Origin: Candidatus Jordarchaeales archaeon
Lineage (GTDB): Archaea; Asgardarchaeota; Jordiarchaeia; Jordiarchaeales; Freyrarchaeaceae
Assembly (NCBI GenBank): GCA_038858525.1
Contig: JAWCFL010000001.1
Coordinates: 107,074 to 139,073 of the forward strand
DNA length: 32,000 nt
Direction: 5' to 3'
In this document: in pieces, positions 1,330-4,095 of the stretch
Numbering within the stretch: the first letter of the stretch is position 1
How the letters are laid out: the number at the start of each line of letters is the position of its first letter
Translations under genes and position numbers: made by a program
Notes under the pieces: generated by a model
Databases searched by the model: none
Seen by the model: only the letters and a program-made list of their open reading frames with translations
What the model was told of the DNA's origin: nothing

Positions 1330-2649
1330 CTATTTGAAGAAAATGGCTCTGCCGATACCATAATATGTCTTTACTCTGGAATATGGTGATAAAATATTTC
1401 TGCCGTCTATTACTATTGTGTCTTCTGGTAAATCGATATTCCGAAAGGCATCATGATCTGTGGCGATTATTATGCAGTCTCTTTTCCTAATTGCTTCATT
1501 TATGCTTTGAGCCACTTTAACTCCTTCACCTTCCACTTTTTTCAGTAACGGGTCATATACTATAATATCGTATATTCCTTTTTTGCGTAGTAAGTCTATT
1601 ATTTTGAGAGCAGGAGAGTTACGTGTGTCCTTTAAGTTTCTCTTATACCCTAAACCCAAAACAGATATTTTAGCATCTGAAGCACGAATTCCCTTCTTTT
1701 CTATCGCCTTAACTGCCAAGTCTACGACATGAGCAGGCATAGAATCATTTATACTTCTTGCCGCCTCTAGAAGAGAGGTGTCGATGCTCATTCTCTTTCC
1801 GACACTTATTAACATGCAGGTAGCTGGCCCTATGCAATACCCGCCAACGCCACACCCCGGCTTCATCCTTATAAAGTTCCATTTTGTCGCGGCAGCATTC
1901 AAAGCTTCCTCTATATCTACACCCAGTTTTTCAGCGATCAAAGCGAATAAATTAGTTAACGCTATGTTGACATCCCTTTGCGCATTCTCCATCACCTTAA
2001 CCAGTTCAGCCGTGGTAGCCGTGGAAACTTTAACTACTTTATCGGTGATTTGATTGTAAAGCCAGTATGCCGCCTCACTTGAAACTTCGTCTACACCACC
2101 CACCACCTTCGGAATGTTCCAAATCTTATGGTTTGAATTTCCGACGTCTATCCTTTCCGGCGAGAAAGCCAGCAAGAAATCCTTCCCAGCCCTTAAACCC
2201 GTTGCATTTTCAAGCATGGGTTTTATTAATCCTTCCGTAGTTCCTGGTGGAACGGTGCTCTCAGTAATAAGCAACTTTCCACGAACACCTCCTTTAATAA
2301 TAGAATTGTAAGCAGAAACCAAGCAGCTTAAATCAAAATCAGTAGTACCCGTAGCGTGAGTAGGAACTGTGACAATGACCACATCTCCAAGAGAAGAAGC
2401 CTCGGCGATATCTGTACTAAAGGTCATGCATGACCCATAACGCTTTAGCACATCTGATACCCAGAGCTCCTCATCAATGTAGTTTACACCTTGTCTTAAT
2501 GCGTCCACCTTTGATTTATCAGTATCAAAACCATAAATCCTGAATCCCTTCCACGCGAAGACGCAAGCAACGCTAAGTCCAACATATCCAAGTCCCACGA
2601 CGGAAATTGCAACCTGTTTCTGTTTAATCCTCTCAATTAACTCCTCCAT
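1330..2649 (-). CDS. Nucleotide-sugar 6-dehydrogenase (UDP-N-acetyl-mannosamine/glucosamine dehydrogenase, WecC/WbpA-like)
   Basis: Rossmann VVGLGYVG, ESTVPPGTT, FSPERI, KVMENAQRDVNIA, catalytic Cys in GVGGYC, C-terminal GLGYKRNLKDTRNSP. Confidence 0.88.
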   Translation of the reverse strand: MEELIERIKQKQVAISVVGLGYVGLSVACVFAWKGFRIYGFDTDKSKVDALRQGVNYIDEELWVSDVLKRYGSCMTFSTDIAEASSLGDVVIVTVPTHATGTTDFDLSCLVSAYNSIIKGGVRGKLLITESTVPPGTTEGLIKPMLENATGLRAGKDFLLAFSPERIDVGNSNHKIWNIPKVVGGVDEVSSEAAYWLYNQITDKVVKVSTATTAELVKVMENAQRDVNIALTNLFALIAEKLGVDIEEALNAAATKWNFIRMKPGCGVGGYCIGPATCMLISVGKRMSIDTSLLEAARSINDSMPAHVVDLAVKAIEKKGIRASDAKISVLGLGYKRNLKDTRNSPALKIIDLLRKKGIYDIIVYDPLLKKVEGEGVKVAQSINEAIRKRDCIIIATDHDAFRNIDLPEDTIVIDGRNILSPYSRVKTYYGIGRAIFFK

Positions 2650-2710: not shown

Positions 2711-2735
2711 AAAAGAAAAAAGAATAAATAACCTT
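2711..2735 (+). promoter_or_regulatory. Probable BRE/TATA promoter of the tRNA gene
   Basis: Purine-rich AAAAGAAAAAAG followed by AATAAATA about 30-35 nt upstream of tRNA nucleotide 1. Confidence 0.5.
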
Positions 2736-2777
2736 TAGTCCGAAAGCTCTCTTAGGCAACGTGGGGGCGTGGTCTAG

Positions 2778-2807
2778 GTATCGGTGGCTTGCCCTCCGAT
2801 AGGAGAA
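2778..2807 (+). other. tRNA intron 1 (position 15/16, 30 nt)
   Basis: Intron helix TATCGG/CCGATA (2779-2784/2796-2801), bulges AG^G and AA^C, central helix GTCT/GGAG (3 pairs plus one G-G mismatch): relaxed BHB. Confidence 0.8.
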
Positions 2808-2817
2808 CTTGGTATGA

Positions 2818-2848
2818 ACCCGATAGGTGCTCTCCTACCGGGGTGCAA
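2818..2848 (+). other. tRNA intron 2 (position 24/25, 31 nt)
   Basis: Hairpin CCCGaTAGG/CCTAcCGGG, central helix GTAT/GTGC (2812-2815/2843-2846), bulges GA^A and AA^T. Confidence 0.8.
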
Positions 2849-2849
2849 T

Positions 2850-2870
2850 ACCCTCAAAGAGGGGCGTGAG
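2850..2870 (+). other. tRNA intron 3 (position 25/26, 21 nt)
   Basis: After intron 2 removal: outer helix GG/CC, central helix TATG/CGTG (2865-2868), bulges AT^A and AG^T, intron helix CCC/GGG, giving a complete hBHBh' motif. Confidence 0.78.
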
Positions 2871-2887
2871 TCCTGCCTGGGGCGCAG

Positions 2888-2923
2888 AGCAGTGTAGAAC
2901 CACTTTCTGCACTGCTAGCGTAA
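2888..2923 (+). other. tRNA intron 4 (position 42/43, 36 nt)
   Basis: 12-bp hairpin AGCAGTGTAGAA/TTCTGCACTGCT, central helix GCGC/GCGT (2882-2885/2918-2921), bulges AG^A and AA^G. Removal restores anticodon stem GCAG+G. Confidence 0.85.
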
Positions 2924-3057
2924 GCGGTCCCGAGTTCAAGTCTCGGCGCCCCCACCAAATTCAGAATTTTCGCGTTTTGACAAGGAAATTCTTTAAAGGA
3001 AAATTTTAAAGTGGACTTGGTAGGAGTTAGCTTAAAGAGGTTACGTGGTGAATTATT

Positions 3058-4095
3058 TTGGCTCGAACCGCCGTGATCTATCACTCAGAATATCTCAACC
3101 ATGGTGTTGACGATCATCCCGAGAACAAGAGACGGTTAGAGGCTGTTATGCGATTTTTGGAGGAAGAGGGGGTTCTGAGAGCTCCTGAGGTGAAGGTACT
3201 AGAGCCTGAGAGGGCGGGTATTGAGGAGGTTATGCTTAATCATGACGTAGAGTATATTGAATATGTCCGCGCGCTTTCCGACATCGGAGGCATGCTTGAC
3301 CCAGATACAGTAGTTACTAAGGGGAGTTACGAGGTTGCTTTGAGGGCTGTGGGGGGCGGAATACTGGCTGCTAGGGTTGTCGCTGAGGGAAAATTTGATA
3401 ATGCTTTTGCCCTTGTTCGCCCACCAGGGCATCATGCAGAAAGGGGGAGTGGGCATGGGTTCTGCATATTTAACAATATAGCGATTGTCGCCCGTATCCT
3501 TCTTAAAGAGGGCTTTAAGCGGATAATGATTGTGGACATAGACTGCCATCATGGAAATGGAACTCAGAATGCTTTTTATGAGTCCAGTGAGGTTCTCTAT
3601 TTAAGCCTCCATCAGTGGGGTATCTATCCAGGAACCGGCTGGCTAGAGGAAGTAGGATATGGAGAGGGGGAAGGATACACTGTTAATATTCCTCTTCCTT
3701 CTGGAACGGGGGACCAAGAGTATCTTTACGCTCTTGAGGAGGTTATGATGCCGATAGTGGACGATTATAGGCCAGAGTTCATATTGGTTTCTGCTGGTTT
3801 CGACACTCATTACTCTGACCCGATAACTTCGATGAAACTTACATCTGTTGGGCATCGTGAAGTGGCAGGCGTTCTTCTCGATGCTGCAAAGAAAAATGGC
3901 GGGAAAATCGTTTTCGTGCTTGAGGGAGGATATAGTCTTTCAGCTATACCAAAAAGCATAGCGAATATAATATGCCTTATTTCAGGGATAGACAGGTCAT
4001 GGGATGACAAGAAAGTTGAGGGGGTGGGGTTAGATAGAGTAAAAAGGAGGGTTGAAGAGGTAAAGCAGGTTCTTAAATCGTACTGGAAATTTTAA
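3058..4095 (+). CDS. Zn-dependent histone deacetylase-family protein (HDAC/AcuC/AphA superfamily)
   Basis: HPE..RL, RPPGHHA, GFCIFNN, DIDCHHGNGTQ, YPGTG, SAGFD, LEGGY motifs; TTG start. Confidence 0.93.
   Translation: MARTAVIYHSEYLNHGVDDHPENKRRLEAVMRFLEEEGVLRAPEVKVLEPERAGIEEVMLNHDVEYIEYVRALSDIGGMLDPDTVVTKGSYEVALRAVGGGILAARVVAEGKFDNAFALVRPPGHHAERGSGHGFCIFNNIAIVARILLKEGFKRIMIVDIDCHHGNGTQNAFYESSEVLYLSLHQWGIYPGTGWLEEVGYGEGEGYTVNIPLPSGTGDQEYLYALEEVMMPIVDDYRPEFILVSAGFDTHYSDPITSMKLTSVGHREVAGVLLDAAKKNGGKIVFVLEGGYSLSAIPKSIANIICLISGIDRSWDDKKVEGVGLDRVKRRVEEVKQVLKSYWKF

Follow-up and report, generated by a model that had tools for sequence, protein, structure and literature searches.

A tRNA-Pro(GGG) gene with four introns in a Jordarchaeia archaeon, and the candidate one-base exon of its D arm

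We have studied a locus in a 32,000-nucleotide (nt) stretch of DNA, referred to here as the window and always taken as a whole, from an archaeon of the Jordarchaeia, which belongs to the Asgard archaea and is not a member of the Thermoproteales. The locus occupies positions 2763-2957 of the plus strand (195 nt) and holds a tRNA-Pro(GGG) gene of 77 exonic and 118 intronic nt. In Sprinzl numbers, with a D loop that contains nucleotide 17a, exon 1 (2763-2777, positions 1-15) comprises the 5' strand of the acceptor stem, U8, G9, the 5' strand of the D stem (GTCT), A14 and G15, and exon 2 (2808-2817, positions 16-24) reads CTTGGTATGA. Exon 3 consists of the single nucleotide T25 (2849). Exon 4 (2871-2887, positions 26-42) contains T26, the 5' strand of the anticodon stem, the loop CTGGGGC with the anticodon GGG at 2879-2881, and G39-G42, and exon 5 (2924-2957, positions 43-76) contains G43, the variable loop CGGTC, the T arm, the 3' strand of the acceptor stem, A73 and an encoded CCA end (2955-2957). 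The introns are of 30 nt (2778-2807, at 15/16), 31 nt (2818-2848, at 24/25), 21 nt (2850-2870, at 25/26) and 36 nt (2888-2923, at 42/43), all on the plus strand; the first is made up of a bulge base G, the hairpin TATCGG...CCGATA, the helix strand GGAG and a final AA. The first-pass annotation of this DNA had proposed the same four introns, 30+31+21+36 nt or 118 of the 195 nt, and both the coordinates and the comparison with orthologues agree with it; its sites, none of them at the canonical 37/38, hold when read as Sprinzl numbers. Taken as linear coordinates the same positions gave a poorer cloverleaf with G10/G25 and C28/A42 mismatches, and this numbering was rejected. The 8-mer CCGATAGG is present twice, at 2796-2803 in intron 1 (its 3' half) and at 2820-2827 in intron 2 (its 5' half), perhaps by chance, perhaps as the remnant of an intron duplication. 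The gene begins with GGGGGCG and ends with CGCCCCCACCA, just before which lies an intact T arm, and it sits in a 408-nt gap between a gene for UDP-glucose dehydrogenase (1330-2649, minus strand) and a gene of the histone-deacetylase family (3058-4095, plus strand). The TATA-box-like element AATAAATAA (2723-2731, plus strand), which precedes tRNA position 1 by about 36 nt, reads as a putative archaeal promoter, and the orthologue in Candidatus Jordarchaeia archaeon QC4 (G001), which belongs to the same genus as the host, has upstream of it the same ATAAATAA as this element. The T-rich trailer ATTTTCGCGTTTTG (2966-2979, plus strand) may be an archaeal oligo-T terminator.

The excision of all four introns leaves a 77-mer with a CCA end, as had been predicted, whose acceptor stem pairs at 7/7, anticodon stem (CCTGC/GCAGG) at 5/5 and T stem at 5/5 positions. 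The joining of GCAG to G at the junction of exons 4 and 5 produces the Watson-Crick pair C27-G43. The anticodon loop CTGGGGC (7 nt, with U33, G37 and the anticodon GGG) and the discriminator A73 are those of a tRNA-Pro(GGG), and ARAGORN names the spliced 77-mer tRNA-Pro(ggg). The unspliced gene escapes the standard finders, as the first-pass annotation had expected: in a scan of the whole window ARAGORN called no tRNA and Rfam no family, and with its intron option ARAGORN wrongly reported a Leu(tag) gene here with a single intron of 105 nt. Elsewhere in the assembly, which is 92.7% complete, we found no second anticodon arm with GGG set in a tRNA context. Two ARAGORN calls elsewhere in the genome were rejected, a Pro(ggg) on contig C27 as a poor false positive and a Pro(cgg) on contig C21 as the misparse of another multi-intron gene. 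The spliced product also has an uninterrupted homologue. The intron-free tRNA-Pro(GGG) of Bathyarchaeota M10_bin139 (L072:101-176) aligns with it from end to end with two gaps in the D loop, and a block of about 27 identical nt, GATTCCTGCCTGGGGCGCAGGCGGTC, crosses the junctions 24/25, 25/26 and 42/43. In the host itself the Pro(TGG) paralogue carries CTTGGTATGATTCC uninterrupted, matching the region of exon 2, and T25 and T26 are present in this paralogue as well as in the Bathyarchaeota gene. The Pro(TGG) and Pro(CGG) paralogues have the D-arm sequence and the 15/16 intron in common with the Pro(GGG) gene.

An orthologue search over 40 relatives gave matches in 4/4 of the remaining genomes of the host's family and in 4/6 of the sister family, so that nine genomes from two families were compared, five of Jordarchaeia (the window gene included) and four of Freyarchaeia. 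Among the relatives are QC4, Ca. Jordarchaeum madagascariense (G005) and the complete Freyarchaeia genome CP147778.1 (G006), the last of the same order as the host. A pattern scan of the contigs of other genomes with the anticodon exon returned mostly chance matches of bacterial origin. In the alignment of the five Jordarchaeia genes the introns vary in length and sequence, and the exons are invariant save for positions 17 (C/T, in exon 2) and 59 (A/G, in exon 5). Exon 1 is thus the same in 5/5, and its positions 9-15 (GGTCTAG) are retained in 3/4 Freyarchaeia orthologues; exon 4 is likewise the same in 5/5 and identical to that of the Bathyarchaeota tRNA-Pro(GGG). Run independently on this alignment, RNAalifold recovered the hairpin of each of the four introns, as well as the intron-4 central helix. 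All seven pairs that changed on both sides sit in intron hairpins, five of them in that of intron 4, and the 6-base-pair (bp) inner hairpin of intron 1 shows a compensatory change from G-C to A-U. The Freyarchaeia orthologue (L009:1501-1718 in G006, CP147778.1 1798836-1799053; also L006, L007 and L008) parses into five introns, at 15/16, 24/25, 25/26, 37/38 or 38/39, and 59/60, which together take up 141-145 nt against 77 nt of exons, and each of the five shows the same arrangement of splice motifs as the window gene. These genes have no intron at 42/43, their anticodon-region intron being at 37/38 or 38/39 instead. Intron 3, of 21-25 nt, is present in all orthologues found, in both families, except that of G002, a genome of the host's own genus. 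There (L005:1501-1670) exactly the 21-nt intron 3 is missing, so that the gene reads TATGA...AA|T|TCCTGCC, and the mature sequence is intact. Since intron 3 occurs in the other genus and in the sister family, the state of G002 looks like an exact loss.

The four introns share one layout of the bulge-helix-bulge (BHB) type, in which four exon bases of the central helix (H) are followed by a bulge b1 b2^b3, the intron hairpin h', the four intron bases of the complementary strand H' and a second bulge b1' b2'^b3', the bulges being of 3 nt and the cuts (^) falling after the second bulge base. H and H' are GTCT/GGAG in intron 1 (3/4 paired), GTAT/GTGC in intron 2 (4/4), TATG/CGTG in intron 3 (4/4 with intron 2 removed, CGTG lying at 2865-2868) and GCGC/GCGT in intron 4 (4/4), and the respective bulges are AG^G/AA^C, GA^A/AA^T, AT^A/AG^T and AG^A/AA^G. 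The BHB arrangement of a central helix of 3-4 bp and two 3-nt bulges on opposite strands was found in all four introns, as were h' hairpins of 5-11 bp which close beside the bulges. A permissive BHB scan returned 387 candidates in 192 nt and was too loose, and we used a strict rule with a null distribution instead. The strict rule is satisfied by about 1% of random boundary pairs, whether drawn from this locus, from shuffles or from elsewhere in the window, and by 4/4 of the real boundaries. The register was checked on the tRNA-Val(TAC) of the host, whose intron, placed by eye at 30/31, has the central helix CGCC/GGCG (4/4). A quick scan for open reading frames that would be rejoined by strict BHB removal (window positions 1-32000) gave mostly ordinary gene boundaries. 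The layout is kept in the five Jordarchaeia genomes, G002 being without intron 3, and in the four Freyarchaeia genomes, with H paired at 3-4/4. For intron 2, where H is G19-T22, the local minimum free energy (MFE) structure is exactly that of the BHB model, and the helix is retained in 9/9 orthologues with GTGC, GTAC or GTAT as the intron strand. The local MFE structure of the intermediate from which intron 2 has been removed likewise corresponds to the model for intron 3. In intron 4, where H is G37-C40 and the inner hairpin is 11 bp, the local fold matches the model with a 5' bulge of 2 nt, and H has a base-pair probability of 0.5-0.9 in the whole 195-nt precursor.

Introns 2 and 3, both in the D arm, are separated solely by T25. 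Their central helices draw on overlapping bases of exon 2, G19-T22 for intron 2 and T20-G23 for intron 3. As long as intron 2 is in place, the four bases that precede A-T25 belong to its tail, and with these the helix of intron 3 pairs at 3/4 positions in the window gene and at 1-3/4 across the eight genomes that have the intron. Once intron 2 is removed the four bases are TATG, and pairing rises to 4/4 in the window gene and to 3-4/4 across all eight genomes. An alternative register with a 2-nt exon 3, worked out by hand, leaves only 2/4 central pairs. Because the motif of intron 3 is complete only without intron 2, the motifs imply an ordered splicing in which intron 2 would be cut and its flanks ligated before intron 3 is recognized. 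If both introns were cut simultaneously, they would free a nucleotide which no ligase could restore, and the cell would therefore have to enforce the order. We lean, by a small margin of confidence, towards the view that in Jordarchaeia and Freyarchaeia alike the D arm contains two abutting BHB introns around the single-nucleotide exon T25, which could be spliced solely in this fixed order.

Could introns 2 and 3 instead be one element? In such a three-intron gene 2818-2869 (52 nt, that is introns 2 and 3 together with T25) would be a single composite intron, G2870 would serve as nucleotide 25, and the one-base exon would be an artefact of parsing. Neither the mature length of 77 nt nor any other position would change, the AGTCC before the anticodon stem is conserved in eight genomes, and a census which merges nearby insertions would score the two introns as one. 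The composite still forms a central helix, but with only 2-3/4 pairs, almost all of them G-U, whereas the two-intron model has helices of 4/4 and 4/4 in the host genome. It also creates a G10/G25 mismatch, and its G25 is contradicted by the T25 of G002, of the Bathyarchaeota orthologue and of the Pro(TGG) paralogue. Its interior consists of two separate hairpins, not closing beside the bulges, in 8/8 genomes, and what G002 has lost is exactly the 21-nt unit, not the composite. We therefore regard a composite intron as improbable, and prefer two introns with T25 between them.

The genome encodes the enzymes that such a gene would require. There are two paralogues of the splicing endonuclease, each with the domains PF01974 and PF02778. 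EndA alpha, of 191 amino acids and encoded at L129:1474-2049 on the minus strand, most resembles the catalytic subunit of Aeropyrum pernix in its heterotetrameric enzyme (3P1Z_B, E 1.6e-48), retains the Tyr/His/Lys residues and has a GIRKPK loop (RKPK) at the site of the crenarchaeal specific loop. In EndA beta, of 198 amino acids and encoded at L130:1189-1785, the catalytic His is replaced (GEEAAKN versus DKEHSVY in the enzyme of M. jannaschii). This two-subunit pattern fits an (alpha-beta)2 endonuclease capable of cleaving relaxed motifs, and the broad-specificity enzyme which the first-pass annotation had deduced from the motifs thus has a good candidate. RtcB is also encoded (601 bits). 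According to the pathway that we propose, transcription from the TATA-box promoter would yield a precursor of about 200 nt, in which each intron (at 15/16, 24/25, 25/26 and 42/43) would fold into the HBh' form, with a central helix of 3-4 bp between the exon and the 3' end of the intron, two 3-nt bulges and the intron hairpin, and with no outer helix between exons. The (alpha-beta)2 endonuclease would cut after the second bulge nucleotide on both sides. Intron 2 would leave first, and the ligation that follows would bring TATG beside A24-T25 and so build the motif of intron 3. Ligation of the exons by RtcB would finally give the 77-nt tRNA with its encoded CCA.

Taken together, we are confident, though short of certain, that the locus is a single functional tRNA-Pro(GGG) gene whose four BHB introns are removed by an (alpha-beta)2 EndA and whose exons are joined by RtcB. 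A number of observations weigh against this reading. The D stem of the spliced product has three pairs only (G10-U25, U11-A24 and C12-G23), with U13 and U22 mismatched. The outer exon-exon helix h is found in none of the four introns, which makes the motifs relaxed HBh' and not strict hBHBh'. The central helix of intron 1 contains a G/G mismatch, and the local MFE structure shifts its register by 2, which moves the 3' cut by 1 nt; on structure alone this cut is uncertain by that one nucleotide, and homology in the D loop (AGCYTGG) favours a start of exon 2 at 2808. In MFE and partition-function folding of the whole precursor (37 and 65 °C) the central helices of introns 1-3 have probabilities below 0.15. 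The assembly being 92.7% complete, a second copy of the gene is conceivable. No intron of this kind from Asgard archaea has yet been demonstrated to be spliced, according to a recent preprint (10.64898/2026.10.13.758758). Finally, a dynamic programme that optimizes the cloverleaf score alone, free in how many introns it places and blind to splice motifs, finds parses of 2763-2957 with two to six 'introns' that score equally well. Cloverleaf score cannot pick the parse, and the decision therefore rests on the comparative evidence.

Some of these points would suit a decaying pseudogene, in which the insertions are never removed and CCC/CCU codons are read by another tRNA: whole-precursor folding disfavours three of the four motifs, and the locus is recognized neither by ARAGORN nor by the Rfam model. 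Against this, the exons have hardly changed across the two families, the introns have diverged and show compensatory changes in doing so, and both the TATA-like promoter element and the encoded CCA have been kept. The locus also has the sole GGG anticodon arm found in the genome. Nor does interruption mark it out, since nearly all tRNA genes of the host are likewise interrupted (5 pass the Rfam threshold) and the same has been published for the clade. We consider a pseudogene very improbable; judged from its sequence and that of its orthologues, the gene is very probably functional. A cloverleaf with fewer introns, which the first-pass annotation had named as a possible objection, does exist on score, as in the parse with two introns (exons 2763-2770, 2852-2887 and 2924-2954, its D arm taken from intron 3), which scores 159 against 164 for the best four-intron parses on our own generic cloverleaf scale, but its D-arm exon is absent from G002 and differs among the other genomes in both sequence and length, its 'intron' holds the invariant blocks GTCTAG and CYTGGTATGA, and nothing matching this parse is seen in the paralogues or in the Bathyarchaeota tRNA that lacks introns, so that we give it almost no credence.

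Heavy interruption of tRNA genes is the rule in the host genome. Only five tRNA genes in 2.09 megabases reach the Rfam tRNA threshold, ARAGORN reports 11 of which several are wrong, and anchoring on an uninterrupted T arm beside a matching acceptor stem gave about 13 loci over the whole genome; from these low numbers it follows that nearly the whole tRNA set is invisible to standard tools. Two of the interrupted genes are the proline paralogues already mentioned. Pro(TGG) (L139, host contig C1:76150-76480, plus strand) and Pro(CGG) (L140, host contig C13:31150-31500, minus strand) have three introns each, at 15/16, at about 26/27 and in the T loop. A CCA end is encoded in Pro(GGG) and Pro(CGG) and is absent from Pro(TGG). 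Apart from the proline genes, the tRNA-Gly(CCC) of the host (L141:1501-1631, minus strand; host contig C3:47269-47399) has the anticodon loop CCCCCAA, in which C stands in place of U33, a base that is normally invariant. Three congeneric genomes (L142, L143 and L144) share this loop, and a tRNA-Gly(UCC) of Freyarchaeia (L147) has the loop CCTCCAA, likewise with C33.

How much of this is new? The number of introns is not. The first-pass annotation had placed four introns at or beyond the described maximum, and this does not stand. According to Valentin-Alvarado et al. (2024, PMC11291895), introns interrupt 92-95% of the tRNA genes of Freyarchaeia and Atabeyarchaeia, in many cases at non-canonical positions, and Supplementary Data 4 lists several four-intron tRNAs in these groups. 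The preprint of Goswami et al. (2026, 10.64898/2026.10.13.758758) gives 2.0-2.4 intervening sequences per tRNA gene for Jordiarchaeaceae and Freyrarchaeaceae, with up to five in one gene, and the Freyarchaeia orthologue of the very gene studied here parses into five. What may be a new detail is the conserved single-nucleotide exon with a splicing order encoded in the motifs. A search of the literature by term yielded no account of a tRNA exon of one base, and neither such an exon nor an order of splicing is mentioned in the text of the two sources (PMC11291895 and 10.64898/2026.10.13.758758) that was read or searched by term. If T25 is indeed an exon, it would rank as the smallest yet described in any tRNA, and both tRNAscan-SE and a census free of motifs would miss it. 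A published table shows the Freyarchaeia orthologue (1798836-1799053) found by tRNAscan-SE with 3 introns and 40.6 bits (PMC11291895), and these three are introns 1, 4 and 5 of our five-intron parse. As described in the preprint, D-arm insertions are often missed, and its method counts intervening stretches of at least 10 nt and merges positions within 3 nt of each other (10.64898/2026.10.13.758758); introns one base apart would accordingly be counted once. Censuses based on annotators or on insertions of at least 10 nt can therefore still undercount introns, and the five introns of the Freyarchaeia gene would be a case of such an undercount. The same preprint leaves open how such introns arrive (10.64898/2026.10.13.758758), and the exact intron loss in the congeneric G002 offers a datum on how they disappear.

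The closest known systems are those of the same clade. Like the tRNA genes published from Jordiarchaeia and Atabeyarchaeia, the window gene has several non-canonical introns of the BHB type, many of those in the clade lying in the D arm, and a two-subunit EndA, two EndA paralogues being present in most genomes according to the preprint (10.64898/2026.10.13.758758). The one-base exon of the window gene and the splicing order that it implies distinguish it from the published Asgard census. The multi-intron and ectopic-intron tRNA genes of Cyanidioschyzon merolae (PMC3728597) are more distant, being eukaryotic, nuclear and cut by another endonuclease complex, with no reported one-base exon. As regards its four introns, our gene is a further example of a published Asgard peculiarity and no record. 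To our knowledge, the tRNA genes of Thermoproteales have up to three introns per gene. Our gene shares with the multi-intron tRNAs of that group (Sugahara et al. 2008; Marck and Grosjean 2003) the non-canonical sites, the relaxed HBh' motifs, the ligation by RtcB that we propose and a two-subunit endonuclease, the host's being most similar to the enzyme of Aeropyrum pernix. It differs in belonging to another phylum, in its four introns, with five in the sister family, and in the higher density of introns per gene. In spliceosomal recursive splicing with zero-length exons and in organellar twintrons, the removal of one intron creates the recognition site of the next. By analogy only, the removal of intron 2 would in the same way create the site of intron 3. 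Here, unlike in those systems, a protein endonuclease would read the shape of the RNA and the chemistry differs, and the order itself is deduced from the motifs. If the order holds, the D arm of this tRNA would be the counterpart of recursive splicing in a protein-enzyme system, and the archaeal lineage closest to eukaryotes would offer a concrete example of an RNA substrate that itself encodes the order of its splicing by proteins.

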